Part shown: positions 27,839 to 55,584 of the stretch, piece by piece | Position numbering within the stretch: position 1 is the first letter of the stretch | How the letters are laid out: each line of letters opens with the position of its first letter | Assembly: GCF_003018115.1 (NCBI RefSeq) | Contig: NZ_CP027457.1 | Reading direction: 5' to 3' (one strand) | Source: Escherichia coli | GTDB taxonomy: Bacteria; Pseudomonadota; Gammaproteobacteria; Enterobacterales; Enterobacteriaceae | Length of the DNA stretch: 64,000 nucleotides | Made by a program: the position numbers and the translations under genes | Notes under the pieces: generated by a model | The model's input: only the letters and a program-made list of their open reading frames with translations | Told to the model about the DNA's origin: nothing | Databases searched by the model: none

Positions 27839-29122
27839 TTACAGACTTCTGGAAGGTTGCGCAGCTCTTACAACACGCGGTTGATCTTCCGCAGCGTCTT
27901 CCAGCGCACTTAAATCACGGTCTTTCACTTCTGGCATTTTCAGTGCAGAGATTAAACCAATCACTGAATATGCCATGATCATAATGGCGATTGGATACCA
28001 GGATTCCGTCATGGTGCAGAAAATACCTGCCAGGATAGGACCAAAACCGGAAGCGATAAGACCACCAATTTCTTTTGAAATAGCCATCCGGGTAAAGCGG
28101 TTTTTACAGCCGAACATTTCTGCCATGGTAATGTTTTCCAGAGCAAATAATCCCAGCACCGCACAGTTATGAATCACAATCAGTGCAACCATAATGGTGC
28201 TCGGGGCATAGCTTTTATCTACGATGATAGAAAGCATTGGCCACGCCAGCACAATCGCGGAGGTATTCATAATAATATACGGGATCCGGCGACCAATTTT
28301 ATCGGATAACCAACCAAGCAACGGAATGGTCATAAAGCCGAGAATCGAACTGATCATCAATGCATCTGTTGGAATTGCTTTGTTAAACAATAACGTCTGT
28401 ACTAAATAGCCTGCAAGGAAAGTCTGAATTAAACCGGAGTTACCCGCCTGACCAAAACGCAGCCCTGTTGCCAGCCAGAAGGATTTGCTCTGGAACATGC
28501 TACCAGCAGGTGCAGGTTTTGCTGTCGGTTGGTTGCTGTCATTAACCTTCTCAAAGACCGGGCTTTCTTTCAGATTCATACGCAACCAGATAGCAAAGAC
28601 CATCACGACAACGCTCGCCAGGAACGGTATACGCCATCCCCACGCCAGCAGTTCCTCTTTACTGAGAATGAAGAACATAAAGGCCCAGATTGCCGTTGCG
28701 CTTAAGGTTCCGCAGTTAGTTCCCATAGCCACAAATGAGGAGATAATTCCGCGCTTACCTTTTGGCGCATATTCCGCCAGCATCGTACCGGCACCGGAAA
28801 TTTCCGCACCTGCACCCAACCCCTGAATAATACGCAGCGTCACCAGCAAGATGGGGGCAAAAACACCAATCTGTGCATAGGTCGGTAACACACCAATTAA
28901 GGTGGTACAGATCCCCATCATGGTGATGGTAATAAAGAGCACTTTTTTACGCCCTATTCTGTCGCCCATTTTGCCGAAAATAAATGCTCCGACAATACGC
29001 GCCACATAACCTGCACCGTAGGTTCCCATTGCCAAAATTAACGCCATTGCCGTTGATGATTCAGGAAAAAATATTTCATGAAACACTAACGCTGCGCCGA
29101 GCGAATATAACTGGAAATCCAT
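27839..29122 (-). pseudogene. ydfJ: ydfJ MFS (metabolite:H+ symporter family) gene, 5'-truncated at the prophage junction
   Basis: Translation starts already inside the conserved TM1 region (DFQLYSLGAALVFHEIFFP... aligns to about residue 35 of ProP/ShiA-type transporters); sequence right of 29122 is AT-rich and unrelated. Confidence 0.8.
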
Positions 29123-29726
29123 AATTCACAGGTGTTTTTTCCCATCCTGTGGTTTCCTTGGCGTTTTCTAGGTTTTTTCAGATAGTTGCATTTTTTTAAA
29201 AAGCATCCTAAGTTCGATCTCAGTGTCTATCTGGGGCCTATTTCTGTCCCATATATGCCCCAAAAAAACTCCCCAACAGATAAGTAGTTTTTTCATGGAT
29301 TTATGCGTAAAATCAAGAACGGCTGGAAATCATTCAATACTCACACTATCGAAAAATTTACCAGCCAATCGCAGCACGTTCTTGCATAAGGCGTGTCTGC
29401 GGTTTTTCAACTATTCAGATACATCACTCCCATCACATTCATTCCTCCGCATCAAAGGCATATAGGCTATATCACCTTGATATTTTTCTTTTTCAGATAA
29501 AAACTGTTATCTATGTATACTTTTAAACCCAATCCGTGTAGAGTCTCTGCATAAGATAGTTTGCAGTTGCCGCTTCAGCTTGCGCCATAAACCGCCTGAT
29601 TTTTGCTGCCACCTGTTAGCATTCCTGTATACCTGAAACGACAATGTTTATCTACGAACTTTAAGAACACCCAAGATAAAAATTGTCAACTATATCATAT
29701 ATAACACATTACTAATTCGAGGCTAT

Positions 29727-29840
29727 ATGAACAGCATACTGATAATCACATCTCTCCTTATCATATTCAGCATTTTTAGTCATGCCCTAATAAAATTAGG
29801 GATTGGCATATCCAATAACCCAGACAAAACCGATGTATAA
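29727..29840 (+). CDS. Candidate 37-aa small hydrophobic protein upstream of ydfK
   Basis: ATG with GAGG RBS; translation [37 protein letters not shown] has one predicted TM helix. No homology evidence. Confidence 0.3.
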
Positions 29841-29908
29841 GTCAACATATCCTGAATCAGACATACAATATCGCAATGAAAATCAATAATATTTTAAGGA
29901 ATATCTTC

Positions 29909-30142
29909 ATGAAATCAAAAGACACCCTAAAGTGGTTCCCTGCGCAGCTTCCTGAAGTAAGAATTATCCTAGGGGATGCTGTAGTGGAAGTAGCAAAACA
30001 GGGAAGACCTATCAATACCAGAACATTGCTTGATTACATTGAAGGAAACATAAAGAAAAAATCATGGCTGGATAACAAAGAATTATTACAAACAGCGATA
30101 TCAGTTCTTAAAGACAACCAAAATTTAAATGGTAAAATGTAA
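29909..30142 (+). CDS. ydfK: Qin prophage small protein YdfK (YnaE paralogue)
   Basis: MKSKDTLKWFPAQLPEVRIILGDAVVEVAKQGRP...; 77 aa from internal ATG of the 88-aa ORF. Confidence 0.8.
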   Translation: MKSKDTLKWFPAQLPEVRIILGDAVVEVAKQGRPINTRTLLDYIEGNIKKKSWLDNKELLQTAISVLKDNQNLNGKM

Positions 30143-30458
30143 TATAATAAACTTACTTTTTTATCATTTTTCCACTTTAACAACATTTTGCTCCACTTTT
30201 CCACGACCAAACAACTTGAAATCTGGTTAAAATAACACGCAACACTATTCTTCTTCCTTGAGTCCGCCCGGAACTCGAAAAACAAACCGAGTTAAAGCCA
30301 TTTTTCACAAAATCGATTTTGGGTCTCACCAAAATTACGGGGTTGCATACGCATTCGTTTATTTTCGAACGTGTACATACAAATATGCACAAAAATAATC
30401 ATAATTATTTTCTGAGATGCATTATGATATGAACACCAATTTCGTATAGAGTCTCACT

Positions 30459-31049
30459 ATGTCTCAAATTTTTGCTTACTGTCGGATATCAACGCTGGAT
30501 CAGACCACCGAAAATCAACGCCGGGAAATCGAAAGTGCAGGTTTTAAAATCAAACCTCAGCAAATAATCGAAGAACACATTAGCGGCTCAGCAGCAACCA
30601 GTGAGCGTCCTGGTTTTAACCGGTTGCTTGCTCGCCTGAAATGTGGTGATCAATTGATTGTGACAAAACTGGATCGCCTTGGTTGTAATGCAATGGATAT
30701 CAGGAAAACAGTGGAACAACTGACCGAAACAGGTATCAGAGTGCATTGCTTAGCATTGGGGGGCATTGACCTGACCAGTCCAACAGGAAAAATGATGATG
30801 CAAGTAATTTCAGCAGTCGCTGAATTTGAACGAGACCTTTTACTTGAACGCACTCATTCCGGGATAGTAAGAGCCCGCGGCGCAGGGAAACGTTTTGGTC
30901 GACCACCTGTGTTAAATGAAGAACAGAAACAGGCGGTATTCGAACGAATTAAGTCAGGTGTAAGTATAAGTGCCATTGCCCGGGAATTCAAAACCTCGCG
31001 GCAAACCATTTTAAGAGCCAAAGCAAAACTTCAGACACCTGACATATAA
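30459..31049 (+). CDS. pinQ: Serine-recombinase DNA invertase (Pin/Gin/Hin family)
   Basis: 196-aa ORF with N-terminal resolvase catalytic domain (YCRISTLDQ, active-site Ser) and C-terminal HTH. Confidence 0.9.
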
Positions 31050-31146
31050 AAAATAATCTCGGTGTGAGATGCTTTACGTCTTCCAAGCCCCCTTCCTTGC
31101 CGTAAATGGAAAGATACATCTAATTATAGAATTTATATGTTTTACC

Positions 31147-31722
31147 CTACGGCAGTGCTGGCCATTCAATATCCTGTGCAGTTGACGTATCAACACGGTT
31201 CAGCAATACCCGATACTTTTTCCATGCTTCCAGCAACGAGATTTCTTCCTCCGTTGCAATTTCCAGATCTGCAGCATCCTGAAGCGGCGCAATATGCTCA
31301 CTGGCTACCTGCATCAGGTTGTTTTTTGTTTCTTCCGCCTCCCGGATCCGGAACAGTTTTTCTGCTTCCGTATCCTTCACCCAGGCTGTGCCGTTCCACT
31401 TCTGAAACTCCCCTTCCGGCGATAACCAGGTAACATTTTCCGGTAACGGACCGAGTTCAGAAATAAATAACGCGTCGCCGGAAGCCACGTCATAAACCGT
31501 TTTACCCCGATGATCTTCAACGAGATGCCACGATGACTCATCACTGTTGAAAACAGCCACGAAGCCAGCCGGAATATCTGGCGGTGCAATATCGGTACTG
31601 TTTGCTGGCAGACCTGTATGAGGCGGAATATATGCATCACCTTCACCAATAAATTCATTAGTTCCGGCCAGCAGATTATAAATTTTTATGGTCCGTGGTT
31701 GTTCACTCATTCTGAATGCCAT
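31147..31722 (-). CDS. tfaQ: Tail fibre assembly protein
   Basis: 191-aa [37 protein letters not shown]...; start overlaps stf stop. Confidence 0.9.
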
Positions 31723-34700
31723 TATGCAAGCCTCACAATATAGTTAAATGCGATGTTTTTGACGGTGTTTTCCGCGTTACCAGCAGCGTTAACGGTGATG
31801 GTGTGTCCATGTGAACCAATCGCAACGGAGTGCGTATGAGCACCAATACCGACAGTATGTGCATGTGCGCCTGCGCTTGCAGCAGTGCCGGACAGCGAGT
31901 GGGTATGAGCACCATCTGATGATGTCTTCCCTGCATTACGAGTCTGGCCACTACCGCTTGTTGTGCTCATAATCCCCGCGCTTAGATTTGAAATCGCGGT
32001 ATAACCATTAGGGAAAATGCTCGTGTTCGTGCCACCAAATGCACCGGAACTCTTGTGTTGGTGCGCACCGGCACTATTTGCGGTCCCGCTAATACTATGG
32101 GTATGCGCCCCGGTGTTATTCGTGGATTTGGTTCCGTAATCAAACGACGATGTGGTTTTCGTCCCCAAATCCGTACTGGATGCGCTGGCGCTGTGGGTGT
32201 GCGATTTAATGCCGTCCTGTTCCTGAGATAATACGGCCCGACCACTGGCGGGCTTGCCCTTAATCGTCCAGCCACGCATATCAGGGATCACGCCTGACGG
32301 ATAAGCAACTGCAAGTTTCGGGTATGCAGATTTGTCAAAAGTCTGCCCCTGCATCAGGGCATAACCAGACGGAACGGTATCTGATGGCCACGGGATTGGT
32401 GCACCGACTGGATAAAACTCTGCAGGAGGATGAGCCGAGGTGTAAAGCTGCGCCCACGGCGACCAGTTTGCGTCGGTCGTATCCCGTCGTGAACGAATAA
32501 ATGCCGGAGCATGAGCACCGCTTGTACCACTCCAGCCGATGAGTAACTCACCTTCGCCAACGGCTGTCATCCCTTTCAGGTGAATGATATTTCCATACGC
32601 TGTTGGATATCCGTTGTTATACACCTCGTATAACTCAAGACCTGCTGCCCCCTGCGTATTGTCTGTCAGCGCGGTTACCCGACCTTTTGAAGCCAGATTA
32701 ACTGATGATACTGCTGTTCCACCTGACGGTAACGCCCCGATCTCTGATGCCGTTGGCTTATTTCTGGAGTTATAGTCCCTTCGCCAGCCAGGTGAATAAT
32801 CTGTTCCGTGATTAATATAGGTAAACTGGGCGTTAGTTGTTCCACCACCAGTGGAGGTGGTCGGTGTGGTAATGCGGATCGTCATCGCTGACTTTATCCC
32901 CATTACTTCAATGACAGCTCCGGCGAGATGAATATTACCGCAGTCAGTATCAGTAATGATTTTATTATTGCCATAAGACCAGGAACCCTTGCACATCCAG
33001 TATGGATGGTTAAATGCTCCCTGAGAATCCAGCCACTCGATAAACTGTGCAGTCGTCCAGTTTCCTGTTGTTGTGCTTACTGACCCACCGAAGGCACGGC
33101 AGGCACCAATATTTTTCGTAAAGGTATCTTTGCCAGGGATATCCGCACCGTTCTGATCTTTCTGCAGACGTTTCTCAGCATTGTCATTGGCTGCTTTTAC
33201 TGCCTTTGGTGTCGCGGCAAGCGTTTCAGACGTGCTGTTGGTCGCGCTGCTTAGCTGGATTATCCCTTTCTGTGCTGTCGTTGCATCCTGTGCGGTGTAT
33301 TTCCCGTTAGCCAGGTCATACGCGGCCTTAACGGCTTTTGGTGTTGCCGCCAGTGACTCGGAAGTGCTGTTAGTCGCACTACTGAGCTGTACTATCCCCT
33401 TTTTCGTCGTGCTCGCATCCTCAAGCGCCACGGCGGATGCAATATCCTCTGCCCGTTTTGCTGCTGTCTCGGCGCGCGTTGCTGCGGATTCTGCCGTACT
33501 TTTGCTCTGAGCTGCCGCCGTCGCACTGCCAGCAGCCTCTGTCGCCTTCGTGGATGCCGTCGTGGCGCTGCTCTTCGCTGCTGACGCTTGTCTGGTCGCC
33601 TCATCTTTTGAAGCAGACGCCGATGATGCCGATGACGCCGCCGAACTGGCTGACGATGCGGCAGCCGTTTTTGAGGATTCTGCGCTGGTTTCCGACGCTT
33701 TCGCGTTCGTTTCGGATGTCTTCGCTGCGGAAGCAGACCTCGCTGCTGCGCTGGCCTGTTCAGTGGCTTCGCCAGCCTTCGTTGTGGCTGTTGAAGCAGA
33801 CGATGCGGCGCTTTCTGCCGATTTTCCGGCGGCGGTGGCACTGGCTGAGGCCTGCCCGGCACTTGTTGACGCTGCACTGGCAGACGACGCAGCCGCTGTT
33901 TTTGAGCCTGCCGCAGCCGAGGCGCTCTGTCCCGCTGCCGTTTCAGAAGACCTGGCGTTCGTCTCTGACGTTTTTGCCGCCTTCGCGGAATTTCCTGCCG
34001 CTGTTGCCGAGGAAGCTGCGCTACTGGCGCTCGAGGATGCGTTCGTTTCTGATGATTTTGCCGCCTCTTTTGAAGCCGACGCATCCCGGGCTGAGGTGGC
34101 AGCTTCTGACGCTTTCGTGGTCGCGGTGGATGCAGAAGTGGCTGCTGATTGTTGTGACGCTGCAGCATTCGTTTCTGACGTTTTCGCGGCACTGGCACTG
34201 GTAGCTGCCGCGCTTTTTGAGGACTCTGCAGCGGCAGCACTTTTTGATGCTTCAGTGGCCTTTGTTGATGCCGTTCCTGCGCTGGAAGACGCTGACTGAG
34301 CCGACGAAGCGGCCTGTCCGGCTGACGTGCTGGCTGCGCGTGCTGAGCCTGCAGCATCAGTCGCATGGGTTGCCGCCTCACGGGCAGATGTGCCGGCATC
34401 GCCGGCTGACTTCTTCGCGGCTGCCGTGTTCTGTGCCACCGCGGACGCGTTACGCGCCACCTCTTCCACCATCAGTTCAAAACGGCGCAGAGCCTCCGGA
34501 CGGGCATCATCCTCCGTCATGGCACCGAGAAAATCATTCAGCGTACCGGGTCGGGAATCTTCATACACGGTGATGGTCCCGGCATGTGACGGCGGGAATC
34601 CTTCCACCAACAGAATAACGCTGTACTGACCGTACTCAACGTCCATGCTGTAACGCCCGGCTTCATCCGGATTTTCTGAGGCCAGCGTGTTCACCACCAC

Positions 34701-34796
34701 CGCGGTGCTGTTACGTTTTGCTTTCAGCTGGATTGTGCAGTTCTGTACCGGTTTTCCTGTGCCGTCTTTCAGTACACCTGAAATCTTTACTGCCAT
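31722..34796 (-). CDS. stf: Side tail fibre protein, lambda Stf-like, full length (about 1024 aa)
   Basis: N-terminus [26 protein letters not shown]... and C-terminus ...[24 protein letters not shown] match my recollection of lambda Stf; track start is a GTG two codons upstream of the ATG. Long Ala/Ser/Thr-rich central repeats; His-x-His motifs near C-terminus. Confidence 0.9.
33180..34330. repeat. Low-complexity Ala/Ser/Thr-rich coding repeats inside stf (GC-rich, open in several frames)
   Basis: Reiterated ...SAA(S/T)SA.../KTSETNA units and duplicated [15 protein letters not shown](S/T)[11 protein letters not shown] block; generates spurious ORFs on both strands. Confidence 0.8.
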
Positions 34797-34805
34797 ATTC
34801 ACCCC

Positions 34806-34833
34806 ACAAAAAAGCCCGCCTGAACAGGCGGGC
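34806..34833 (-). terminator. Rho-independent terminator downstream of lom
   Basis: Hairpin GCCCGCC-TGTTCA-GGCGGGC followed by a T-run on the minus strand. Confidence 0.6.
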
Positions 34834-34860
34834 TGTCATAACACTGTGTTACCTGGCTAA

Positions 34861-35460
34861 TCAGAACTTATAACCGACACCCACGATGAAACCGTCAGTG
34901 CGCCAGTCGCCACTGCCGGAGCCTTCATAAGCAATATCAATGGCCACGGATTCGGTCGGGTTAAACTGCACGCCAGCTCCCCACGCCAGAGACGTGTTGC
35001 TGTGGCGACCGTCATCACTTCCGGTCAGCACGTCGTGCGTTTTCCCCTTGTTGTCAGTTACGCGGAGATAATCCCCGGAGAAAGTCGACACACGGCTGTA
35101 AGCCATACCCGCCATCGCATACGCGCTGAACCATTCATTCACGCGCACAGACGGCCCCACCATCACGCTGAACCAGCGGTTACGCACGGAATCTTCATGC
35201 CAGCGGGTATCGCTGTAACGGGTAAGCTGGCGATTCTTGTCTCCTGCATAGCTGAATGACGTCACCAGCCCCAGTGTGTCCGTAAACTCATAACGGTATT
35301 TCACGTTAATCCCGTTAAGATCATCGCTGCCGGGAACGTTCGTCGAGGCATGAAGATACCCCGCGCTCAGCGTGGACTGATGTTCAGATGCCCATGCAGG
35401 CGCACCGGATACGGCCAGACAAATGGCTGCGGACAAAATGGCGGCATAAAGTTTACGCAT
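34861..35460 (-). CDS. lom: Lom/Ail-family outer-membrane beta-barrel protein
   Basis: 199-aa ORF with signal peptide and C-terminal ...[15 protein letters not shown] as in lambda Lom. Confidence 0.9.
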
Positions 35461-35484
35461 AATTACCTCTCGCTTTTCTGCAAT

Positions 35485-35508
35485 AAAAAAGGCACCATTT
35501 CTGGTGCC
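35485..35508 (-). terminator. Rho-independent terminator downstream of J
   Basis: Hairpin GGCACCA-GAAA-TGGTGCC followed by a T-run on the minus strand. Confidence 0.55.
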
Positions 35509-35529
35509 CTTATATGGGTTATAACAATT

Positions 35530-38500
35530 TCAACGAATACTGATGCCGGAAGCGGCTTTTTTGGTCACAATCACCGTACAGTCGGTGATATTGCCTGCCC
35601 CCTGATTGCCTTTCTGGAAAATCTTAAACTCCAGAGTGACGCTACCACCACCACTAGGCATATCAATAACTGCACTGTAACTACCGGGAATGGCCCCTTT
35701 AGTTTCTCTGGATGCGATTAATACGCCGTTTTTGCGAACTTCAAAACCATAACCCGTGTATCGCGTGCCTCCTGGGTTATTTCCGCTCCCCGGATCGTCA
35801 TACGCTATACCGTTAAAAATAATGGGCGGAATAATAATCTGGCGGTCAAAGTTATGATCATCGCTGATGGTGACTGTAACCGTACCGTTTGGTGTTTCCG
35901 TGTTACCCCACGTACCGACTTTTTTCGGGAAGGCTTTTGATACAGCTTTAACGAAATCCCCTCTGACCTGGGTCGCCTCCAGCATGCCCTTAATCGTACA
36001 GTTCTGGTTAATCGTGACATTGTTGAGCGTTCCTGAGTTCGCATTCACACTACCACTGATATCCGCATTTTTAGCGGTCAGCTTTCCGTCTGATGTCAGG
36101 GAAAATACCGGAGGACTGCCACCGCTGGTAATGGTGGGGGCCGTCAGGCGTTTCAGGAACACTTCATTCATGAATATCTGATCGCCCTGACCAACAAACA
36201 TCGGCTTTGTGTTGCCATTCGCAGGATTAATCATCGCAATCCTGTCTGCTGCCAGCAGCACCTGACTCTGCATGCCGTCAGGGGTGTTCTCAATACCGGC
36301 ACCGATACCCGCAATATAAAGGCGTCCGTCCTGCATCTGCTGCAGCTTCACTGCCCACATGCTGTTCAGGTTATTATTTGTATCAACCTGAACCTTCTGT
36401 ATCTGCTGGATTGCCGCACTCTGGTCTTCCAGTTTCTTATTGACGGTCTGTGTTATTTCATTGCTGACATCCGTTATGGACGTCCTGATTTCAGTCAGGT
36501 CAGGCGCAAGCTGACCGTTATCAATCTGCGTCCACAGCTCCTGAGCCAGATGGGTTTTCCCTATCTCGCCTTTGAAAAAATCCAGATAGCCTGATGCATC
36601 ATCACTCGGCTGACCGACAGCCTCCACGAATGCCGATTTGCCAACGGTGTTCACACTGCGAACGTAAAAATAATAATCATGGCCCGGTTTGATATTGATA
36701 CTGGCGGCTATCCAGTACAGTGCCGTACCAAGATAACGCGCGCTGGTTTCAACCTGCCTGATATCCGCAATCCGTTTTTCCGAGAACCAGAACTCAAACT
36801 GTACCGTCGGGTCATAAACCGCAAGATGCGGCGTGGCGGTTATCTGAAAATAGCCCGGCGTCAGCTCAATCCGCGACGGCGCTGCCGGTGCGGCAATCCG
36901 GAACGATACCGACGCCGGATCGCCCTGCTGCCCCCACGCATTTACTGCCCGGACTGTCAGCCTGTAGTTCCCCAGAGCCAGTTGTGTGAAGCGGTAAGTG
37001 GTTTCCGTCGTCCGGGCCGTGCTGACCAGCCGCTCACGGCCGTCATCCGCTGCCACGGTCAGGCGAAGCAGGAAGCTCACGCCCTTCACCACCTTCGGCG
37101 TGTCCCAGCGCGCCAGCACCTGGTATTCCCCGCTGTCTGCGGTGACTTCTGCGGTCAGGTGCTGCACCGCTGGCGGCGTGACACCATTTACCGTGCCGCT
37201 CTGGTCGCCGTCAAAGTGCGCCCCGTTATCCACGATGGCCTCTTTTTCCGGTACATGCTGCACGGCGGTGATGGCATACGTGCCGTCGTCGTTCTCACGG
37301 ATACTCACGCAGCGGAACAGGCGCTGGCGCAACGTCGACAGCTTCAGCCCCCATACGCTGTATTCAGCAACGCCGTCAGGAACACGGCTCACTTTCACCT
37401 TCACGCCGTCGGTGACGGACTGAACCTCCACGCTGACCGGACTCCCCTGCCCGTCAACCAGGCTTATCAGCGTGGTGCCGGAAGATGGCAGCGTGATTTC
37501 ACGGTCGAGCGTCAGCGTCCGGGTCTGGCTGTTTACCGCCAGCACGCGCCCGCCGGTGCGGATACCGGCATAGTCATCATCGCAGATTTCAATGACATCG
37601 CCCGGTACATGGCGAAGCCCTTCGGCACCCACGCTGAAGTCCACGGTCTGCGTTTCCAGCAGTTCTGTTTTAATCAGCCACAGCCCGGCGCGGTGTGCCT
37701 GCCCCCGGCTGGTACAGCCAAAAGCATCCATCTTCGTGACGTTACGACCGTAACGGGCAATGGCCTGCGTGTCCTCCACAAGCTCTGTCGCCGTCTCCCA
37801 GCCGTTATTCGGGTCAATCCAGTTCACCTCAACGGCATTATGGCGGTCCTTCAGGGCGCTGAAGCTGTAGCGGAACGGCGCACCATCATCCGGCATCACC
37901 ACATTACTGCGGTTATAGGTCCACACCTTATCCGACGGTCGGTCCTGCACGAACGTCAGCGTCTGCCCGTTCCATACCGGCATACAGCGCATCGCAGAGC
38001 AGAAATCACTGAGCACATCCCACGCCTTGCGCTGTGTGGTCAGGTACGCATTACAGGTGATGCGCGGCTCTGTGCCGCCAAAACCGTCCGGCACCGACTG
38101 ATCGCAATGCTGGCCGATGACATACAGCGCCCATTTGTCCACATCCGCCGCACCAAGACGTTTCCCCATGCCGTAGCGCGGATGGGTCAGCATATCCCAC
38201 AGACACCAGGCCATGTTGTTGCTGTATGCTGGCTTAAACGTTCCGTCCCAGATACCGCTGTATTGCCGCGTCTGCGGGTTATAGTTCGACGGCACCTGCA
38301 GAATGCGCCCGCGCAGATGATAATTACGGCTCACCTGCTGGCTGCCGAACTGCTCCGAATCCACCTGCACGCCGACCAGTGCCGTGTTCGGGTAGCACTG
38401 TTTCACATCGATGATTTCGGTGTATGACGACCAGAGCGTTTTGTTCTGCAGCTGGTCTGTGGTGCTGTCCGGCGTCATCCTGCGCATCCGTATATTGAAC

Positions 38501-55433: not shown

Positions 55434-55584
55434 ACCATAACGTCCGGCTTCTCTCACTCCTGAGCCGGACTGCATTGGTTTAATAAAAACCATCAACAAT
55501 TGTGATTTAGATATTCGGAACCATTCAAATATAACAAAACCCCGTAAAAACGAGGTTTATGGATAAATTTTATTATTGAATACA

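Follow-up and report, generated by a model that had tools for sequence, protein, structure and literature searches.

Is pinQ, a serine recombinase gene that lies tail to tail with the tail-fibre genes of a prophage, the last trace of an invertible host-range switch, or did it come from elsewhere? We have addressed this question in a 64-kb stretch of Escherichia coli DNA (64,000 nucleotides of contig NZ_CP027457.1, referred to here as the window), in which the interval from ydfK to tfaQ that surrounds pinQ spans 30143-31146. An earlier note on this DNA had suggested that a switch of the Mu G / P1 C / e14 P type was reduced here to a solo invertase. The reading we favour, at a probability of roughly 0.68, is that pinQ belongs to a captured and decaying Tn3-type resolvase module that has no substrate in cis, and is not what remains of such a switch.

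The pinQ coding sequence (30459-31049, plus strand; RefSeq label pinQ, recombinase family protein) is an intact open reading frame for a small serine recombinase of 196 amino acids, with a catalytic domain and a C-terminal helix-turn-helix. Both domains are full length (Pfam Resolvase, residues 4-144, 2.5e-36; HTH_7, residues 147-190, 2e-11). The identity of PinQ to Gin, Cin and PinE is 35, 35 and 38%, respectively, with three indels, and the recognition helix reads T(S/T)RQTILR in PinQ and its relatives versus STLYKK in these invertases. PinQ therefore stands apart from the Gin/Hin/Cin/Pin clade, the members of which are 60-80% identical to one another and share a helix of the form ...STLY(K/R)... 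A search of the PDB returned Gin with 106 bits (1.6e-29), gamma-delta resolvase with 84 bits and Tn3 resolvase with 79 bits, scores that likewise place PinQ not inside the invertase clade. The NCBIfam matches were all below threshold (Mpi invertase, 85 bits against a cutoff of 272; XisF), and so no curated family claims the protein.

The recognition helix of PinQ recurs in a very large family, 62-84% identical to it, from which relatives at 70-84% identity were retained for alignment. Plasmids, IncF and others, carry many members of this family close to genes for partition or replication. Scanning species-representative genomes yielded the loci of 80 relatives at 62-80% identity, and in 27 of these a Tn3-family transposase (Pfam DDE_Tnp_Tn3 + DUF4158) adjoins the recombinase gene. 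In at least 10 of the 27 the transposase is divergent from position -160, the tnpA<-res->tnpR arrangement, and the recombinase is 73-79% identical to PinQ. Copies of a 3.8-kb unit of transposase and recombinase on Vibrio, Kosakonia and Providencia plasmids share at least 99% identity, which marks the unit as a currently mobile transposon; the transposon with the closest TnpR is annotated merely as "Tn3 family transposase". The window itself holds no transposase, and a search beyond the 3' ends of pinQ and of its relatives' genes for the terminal inverted repeat of a transposon gave nothing convincing. By descent, then, PinQ is not the Gin/Cin/Pin-type invertase it had been taken for: with 35-38% identity and another recognition helix, its relatives are the resolvases of plasmids and Tn3-family transposons. 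A few database proteins (P0004-P0008, one or two member sequences each) are chimeric, joining a plasmid-type N-terminal half to a PinQ-type C-terminal half, and are either natural plasmid/prophage recombinants or assembly chimeras; the N-terminal half brings the arginine at position 76 discussed below.

The DNA upstream of the relatives' genes carries a fixed array of TGT(A/C)CGAAA / TTTCG(T/G)ACA half-sites, and the TGT(A/C)CGAAA half-site resembles those of Tn3-type elements. The array consists of site A, a near-perfect 12-2-12 palindrome of 26 bp at -115 to -90 (consensus TGTCCGAAACCG AT CGGTTTCGTACA); site B, a 32-bp dyad at -75 to -44 in which two inverted half-sites are 14 bp apart; and two direct half-sites at -34 and -21 that flank a TATAAT hexamer. 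Some loci have further dyads upstream. Within 5 kb on either side of the gene, exactly one site A was found in 70 of the 80 loci, always just upstream of the gene, and two were found in none. One site A per locus, and never two, suits a resolvase and not an invertase. Dimer sites of several spacings at the recombinase promoter, found as a single set in each element and in many cases opposite a Tn3 transposase, are the architecture of a res site, in which site A would probably be the crossover site. Its central dinucleotide is GT in some relatives and the complement, AC, in others (family loci L034-L112), so that the presumed crossover site differs between sub-lineages in its polarity with respect to the gene.

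In the window we find this array in an eroded state. A non-coding module that travels with pinQ (30270-30458, plus strand), delimited by a MAFFT alignment with plasmid and prophage copies, is homologous to the region upstream of an E. coli IncF-plasmid copy and holds the remains of the res-like array and of the promoter. The homology to the IncF copy runs from about 190 bp upstream of the gene to about 40 bp downstream, taking in the first ~40 nucleotides of the spacer between pinQ and tfaQ, and its extent upstream indicates that the gene arrived with its control region; by blastn, homology to plasmids begins at 30403. The position of site A (30346-30371, plus strand) now reads CATACGCATTCGTTTATTTTCGAACG and scores -7.4 bits against 22-40 in the family. 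Nowhere in the 64 kb is there a site A, the best score being 2.9 bits and the shuffle maxima averaging 4.7. Site B persists as a remnant, TGCACAAAA-N14-TTTCTGAGA, at 30386-30417 (plus strand), with 19.0 bits, where typical family members reach ~36-40 and shuffled sequence at most 13.7, and is a probable accessory or operator site. It is followed at 30423-30448 (plus strand) by a TATGAT hexamer, TATAAT in the relatives, and two degenerate direct half-sites, ATATGAACA (30427-30435) and TTTCGTATA (30440-30448), at the family positions -34 and -21. This segment is probably the promoter and operator of pinQ, and we infer that the upstream sites that remain act as an operator. One palindrome-like sequence upstream of pinQ, TGTACATAcaaaTATGCACA, was set aside: it bridges the eroded site A and the site B remnant and is not conserved in relatives.

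The catalytic site is altered as well. Of the core residues conserved in serine recombinases (Tyr6, Arg8, Ser10, Asp36, Arg68 and Arg71 in Tn3 resolvase), PinQ has Tyr7, Arg9, Ser11 and Arg73, and Glu39 is a conservative change common to the whole family. The nucleophile, equivalent to Ser10 of Tn3 and gamma-delta resolvases, is encoded by codon 11 (TCA, 30489-30491, plus strand), as aligned with Gin. The equivalent of Arg71, however, is a cysteine, encoded by codon 76 (TGT, 30684-30686, plus strand) within the motif LDRLG-C-N, as read from the sequence and its alignment. Cys76, Ser11 and an intact frame of 196 codons are present in all 25 readable phage and prophage copies, among them several viable phages and a lineage with just 84% identity to PinQ. 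Arginine (CGT or CGA) occupies position 76 in 77 of 78 scorable family loci, and in 112 of 117 scorable proteins among the top database matches. In Tn3 resolvase, recombination is lost when any one of six residues, Arg71 among them, is substituted, and the R71A and R71K mutants show no recombination and cleave about 1000-fold more slowly (PMC2794168). By analogy, Cys76 would be expected to cripple catalysis by PinQ.

Selection on the gene has also changed. The ratio of nonsynonymous to synonymous substitution rates (dN/dS) is 0.37-0.40 between two Cys-bearing prophage lineages, compared with 0.04-0.06 between Arg-bearing members of the family: constraint on pinQ is relaxed, and not gone. The 887-bp module made up of the upstream region, the gene and the spacer is very successful: of 5426 complete E. 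coli genomes, 2677 carry it at no less than 80% coverage, in most cases with an identity of at least 99%.

The contrasting explanation is that the locus descends from a Mu G / P1 C / e14 P-type switch from which the alternative Sv'-tfa' cassette and the crossover sites have disappeared, so that the cognate invertase and perhaps a still-functional enhancer remain. The gene order invites this interpretation. As the coordinates and strands bear out, pinQ converges with tfaQ (31147-31722, minus strand; a tail-fibre assembly protein, Pfam Caudo_TAP 3.6e-43) and stf (31722-34802, minus strand; an intact side tail fibre of 1026 amino acids with Pfam phage_tail_N, Phage_fiber_2 and Collar), and pin -> <- tfa <- stf is the P1 order cin -> cixL [Sv' U' U Sv] cixR <- Sc minus the alternative cassette. 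We therefore looked for the parts of a switch. A half-site matrix was built from the gix, cix and pix half-sites read from Mu (gixL and gixR), P1 (cixL and cixR) and the e14 element of K-12 (two pix), with a hix half-site added, and the whole window and 20 shuffles of it were scanned for 26-mers with the geometry of 12-2-12 dyads. Real sites of the gix/cix/pix type score 26.5-29.8 bits on this matrix. The window contains none, since its best 26-mer reaches 11.5 bits, and the shuffle maxima have a mean of 11.6 and a highest value of 14.7; within 29000-35500, around pinQ, the best score is 4.4 bits. The 97-bp spacer between the converging stop codons of pinQ and tfaQ (31050-31146), the place equivalent to that of cixL in P1, is likewise free of a crossover site in the matrix scan. 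The earlier note had seen no gix-type sites flanking pinQ, and the position-matrix search supports it on this point. The AAACCGAG sequence in the ydfK-pinQ spacer (30284-30291, plus strand), which it had listed as a core-like match, is part of no scoring site (less than 4.4 bits as a gix-type site) and is not a crossover site; it also lies outside the family-wide array, and the IncF plasmid copy has AAACCATG at that place.

The scan was capable of finding such sites. In L019, an IMG/VR prophage contig that is related to the window and has a Mu-like G segment beside pinQ, it recovered two inverted sites of 27.1 and 25.8 bits, while the remaining scanned PinQ loci gave at most 11.9 bits, except for L028, which retains one of the two L019 sites. 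A simpler search for the core AAACCNNGGTTT with up to two mismatches was uninformative (30 matches against 32 expected) and was replaced by the half-site matrix. A lone gix-like half-site at 55541-55566 was rejected, as its total of 9.7 bits is within the range of chance. That sequence, CCCGTAAAAACGAGGTTTATGGATAA, has a right half near-identical to a gix half-site (GGTTTTGGATAA) and no left half; it is intergenic, directly follows an open reading frame of 141 amino acids, and is conserved in the related prophages L022 and L027. When TfaQ, Stf, e14 TfaP/TfaE, Mu S/U, a U'/Sv' pair and Gin/Cin/PinE were used as tblastn queries against the window, one tfa, one stf and one serine recombinase were found in the 64 kb and no second copy of any, so that the lack of an alternative tfa/stf cassette, also claimed before, stands. 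Inverted repeats joining the flanks of pinQ to stf, sought over 28500-36000, were only 71-80% complementary, which is the level of chance. The recombinase is thus solo, with nothing adjacent to invert.

Whether it became solo by loss of a switch is another matter. The C-terminal module of stf, from residue ~566 on, is homologous to the invertible Sv module of L019, a point in favour of the reduced switch. However, the stf sequence opposite gixL of the L019 segment and Mu gixL in the alignment (33193-33218, minus strand) reads GCCGCGACACCAAAGGCAGTAAAAGC, which is not a gix site, and the homology to the Sv module starts ~20 nucleotides downstream of it. Over residues ~506-566, Stf is 64% identical to the final portion of the Mu S constant part (window 33080-33260), and no gix is present where the Mu S-like and Sv-like parts join. 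There is no trace of a site at either the 3' end of pinQ or this gix-equivalent place.

L019 itself offers a comparison. In this contig (L019:1640-5095) an intact pinQ lies beside a Mu/P1-like segment, Sv' U' U Sv, with two gix sites, and the gin gene, truncated to 72 codons, is fused to a 3' remnant of tfaQ; the switch is lodged between that remnant and stf. The real G-type switch beside pinQ is thus equipped with a truncated gin and with gix sites of its own, from which it follows that the recombinase and the fibre genes are independent mosaic modules. A second IMG/VR prophage contig (L028:680-2690) has the same truncated gin and junction, 99.7% identical to those of L019, with the Sv-U half in the opposite orientation followed by a degenerate gix-like site. 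The same truncated gin next to opposite orientations indicates that the segment was flipped or rearranged after gin had been truncated, presumably by a trans-acting invertase. Across PinQ loci, the last 31-45 codons of tfaQ, a spacer of 97-103 bp and pinQ are constant, while unrelated versions replace the remainder of tfa and the C-terminus of stf; the resulting mosaic boundary inside tfa is sharp (window 31050-31290; loci L006-L030). All 28 phage and prophage loci compared share an identical solo layout. The order J, lom, stf, tfa / pin, ydfK / int also occurs in the viable phages mEp460_ev081, where int is followed by xis, and PhiR34_1, so that it is not a product of prophage decay. In mEp460_ev081, pin and ydfK occupy the position of the lambda b region.

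Nor did we find support for the proposal that recombinational enhancer sequences in the 5' part of pinQ may still be active. The P1 record annotates the cin enhancer at nucleotides 19-90 of cin, and over nucleotides 19-90 pinQ is 54-56% identical to the gin, cin and pinE enhancer region, whereas those three are 76-79% identical to one another. A crude test with the Fis consensus GNNYRNNWNNYRNNC gave no match in the first 200 nucleotides of pinQ, and the match conserved in the three invertase genes at nucleotides 71-85 is absent from it. Taken with the descent of PinQ outside the invertase clade, from a group of transposon and plasmid resolvases, these results largely refute the reduced-switch explanation, to which we give scarcely any weight. 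The proposal that the host-range switch had shrunk to a solo invertase is therefore supported in part: the gene is solo, but no sign of a switch reduced around it was seen.

That PinQ stands alone is already known. Kirigo et al. (Nucleic Acids Research, NAR, 2025; PMC12529663) report that PinQ does not invert neighbouring DNA and that BLAST with Qin and rac shows no inversions. These published data bear on another rival explanation, in which PinQ is active in cis on unrecognised sites of a non-gix kind and brings about long-range inversion or excision in the prophage, or the resolution of phage genome dimers. The gene is intact and widespread, and the weak site B remnant and the two half-sites persist upstream of it, as would be expected if it were so. 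On the other hand, no second site A or site B exists within the 64-kb window, the stretch searched, and no significant inverted repeats involve the flanks of pinQ. The order of ydfK, pinQ, the spacer and the tfa 3' end is colinear in every locus examined, the published survey found no inversions, and the enzyme has Cys76. We regard cis activity of this kind as very unlikely.

Invertases are well known to act in trans, as PinE does on Mu G and Fin on Salmonella H, and the opposite orientations of the G-like segment beside the same truncated gin' in L019 and L028 suggest that some trans-acting enzyme flipped that segment. Both points are in keeping with the model published for PinQ, in which it is an active invertase that works in trans on the 1.8-kb P segment of e14, with pix sites within stfP and stfE, and is solo only locally. 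Kirigo et al., who regard PinQ as a true invertase with pix sites as its direct target, describe a PinQ/PinR-e14 system of "recombinase-activated phage inhibition". They report that overproduction of PinQ raises the inverted fraction of the 1797-bp P segment to 88% (pCA24N-pinQ, versus 26-30% in controls), and that this inversion creates StfE2, which keeps T2 from adsorbing; T2 survivors on PinQ-overproducing lawns carry an inverted P segment, and strains deleted for stfP, stfE or e14 show no PinQ effect (PMC12529663). The pinQ of that system is the same gene, as the K-12 allele is 98-99% identical to the window copy and also has Cys76.

Other results in the same paper fit this model less well. 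Deletion of pinE, in a strain still pinQ+ and pinR+, locked the P segment with ~98% in one orientation, while deletion of pinQ merely lowered inversion from 30% in the wild type to 22% in the quantitative PCR table (PMC12529663). The 88:12 steady state is unlike that of a simple reversible invertase, and PinE gave 49% (PMC12529663). In the text of the paper we did not find an in vitro assay, a catalytic-serine mutant or overexpression in a pinE-deleted background (PMC12529663). To this are added the cysteine at the essential Arg71 position, a recognition helix that matches Tn3-type resolvases with the half-site TGT(A/C)CGAAA and not TTATC..AAACC, and the lack of a P segment or pix site in the window. 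Direct inversion in trans by PinQ is, in our judgement, improbable. The pinE-deletion result, Cys76, the resolvase-type helix and the resolvase ancestry together suggest that PinE may be the catalyst, and that the effect of PinQ on the P segment may be indirect or PinE-dependent. A more specific and rather doubtful version is that PinQ and PinR, present in about half of E. coli, are catalysis-deficient descendants of resolvases retained as DNA-binding proteins, and that they owe their anti-phage effect to an influence on the PinE-driven e14 switch, whose orientation they would bias or lock, or to a change in PinE expression. If so, a "dead" recombinase would have been domesticated as a directionality or regulatory factor for the invertase of another prophage.

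For the captured resolvase module, the course of events would be as follows. A Tn3-family or plasmid resolvase gene of the TnpR type would have been the ancestor, and Qin/Rac-type lambdoid phages would have captured it together with ~190 bp of upstream res-like and promoter DNA. The landing place would have been the accessory region between tfa and attP-int, the position of the b region of lambda. In the prophage lineage the module has decayed: the likely crossover palindrome has been lost, the accessory sites have weakened, cysteine has replaced the Arg71-equivalent arginine and purifying selection has relaxed. The window thus offers PinQ no DNA substrate in cis. Its catalytic activity is expected to be weak at best, and it would most probably persist as an autoregulated DNA-binding relic in a very successful prophage module.

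Several observations weigh against this account. The best match of PinQ among solved structures is Gin and not a resolvase, and the 12-2-12 geometry of the family site A resembles that of invertase sites. Only architecture and gene neighbourhood suggest that site A is a crossover site and that the array is a res site, and the effect of the Arg-to-Cys change is extrapolated from the R71A and R71K mutants of Tn3 resolvase, not from PinQ. The dN/dS values are below 1, the reading frame is intact in 25 of 25 copies and the module is found in 2677 of 5426 genomes, all of which would fit a retained function. Finally, 88% inversion of the P segment and protection from T2 suggest some activity or influence of PinQ on a gix-type site (PMC12529663).

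The distinction matters beyond this locus. The annotation of pinQ and pinR, in K-12 as in thousands of genomes, is that of "Pin" invertases, and a class of anti-phage defence described in 2025 is built on direct inversion by PinQ. If PinQ is indeed a decayed Tn3-type resolvase, the mechanism of this defence needs to be re-tested, with the questions of whether PinE is the real catalyst and PinQ a modulator, and the gene name misleads annotators who seek fibre switches beside pinQ. What looks like a plausible "degenerate host-range switch" would be an ordinary mosaic junction, at which a fixed tail-fibre module meets an unrelated cargo gene. In the literature searched we found no report of the resolvase ancestry, of the eroded res-like array or of the missing catalytic arginine, all of which bear on the mechanism claimed in 2025.

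The surroundings of the locus can be described briefly. The window matches the E. coli chromosome at dcp-ydfG-rspR-ydfZ-ydfI-ydfJ', where ydfJ is cut by a Qin-type lambdoid prophage. Rightward from the junction the order is ynfT, ydfK, a 316-bp spacer, pinQ, the 97-bp spacer, tfaQ, stf, lom and J. The cold-shock protein gene ydfK (29909-30142, plus strand; named from the RefSeq annotation of a 99.5%-identical locus) and ynfT (29727-29840) form a conserved accessory block upstream of pinQ, which lies at the right end of the prophage, adjoins the truncated ydfJ and is also found in phages. As ydfJ (27839-29122) is annotated without its N-terminus, the prophage-chromosome junction on the attR side is placed between ~29123 and ynfT (29123-29726). 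A consensus scan of 30100-31200 for promoters and terminators gave weak promoter-like matches only, and no terminator in the pinQ-tfaQ spacer. The tail-fibre region is intact here, unlike that of the K-12 Qin remnant. In several genomes that are otherwise 99.5% identical, an IS3 insertion splits stf and leaves a pseudogene fragment, annotated "phage tail protein", beside tfaQ (for example L001:8690-9852 of E. coli XJW9B263; also hits H10-H15).

Among known systems, the Fis- and enhancer-dependent invertases Gin (Mu), Cin (P1), PinE (e14) and Hin belong to the same superfamily as PinQ and have the same size. PinQ too lies beside tail-fibre genes, in an order like that of the P1 cin-C segment minus one cassette, and one paper reports its influence on the orientation of the P segment. 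It differs from them in having no 26-bp gix-type sites (TTATC..AAACC NN GGTTT..GATAA), no invertible segment, no enhancer signature and no Arg71-equivalent arginine.

PinQ also resembles the TnpR/res systems of the Tn3 family (Tn3, gamma-delta). TnpR is likewise a small serine recombinase with Resolvase and HTH_7 domains, and relatives of PinQ at 73-80% identity are divergent from a Tn3-type transposase across a region of 160 bp, which holds several differently spaced dyads that overlap the recombinase promoter, one set per element. The window copy departs from this arrangement in having neither a transposase nor an intact site A, in having Cys for the Arg71-equivalent arginine, and in its position within a lambdoid prophage between tfa and ydfK. 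The identity of PinQ to the gamma-delta and Tn3 resolvases themselves is low (84 and 79 bits), and resolution activity of its sub-family is presumed; we found no publication on resolution by this sub-family. Further counterparts are the PinQ-like genes of IncF and other enterobacterial plasmids (for example WP_000086538 on pHN68-1 and WP_022644914 on pNY9_2), which encode proteins 70-83% identical to PinQ with the same recognition helix. Unlike the window copy, they keep Arg76 and an intact site A (e.g. TGTCCGAAATCG AC CGGTTTCGGACA), and they are found near partition and replication genes or insertion sequences, whereas pinQ of the window is found near phage genes.

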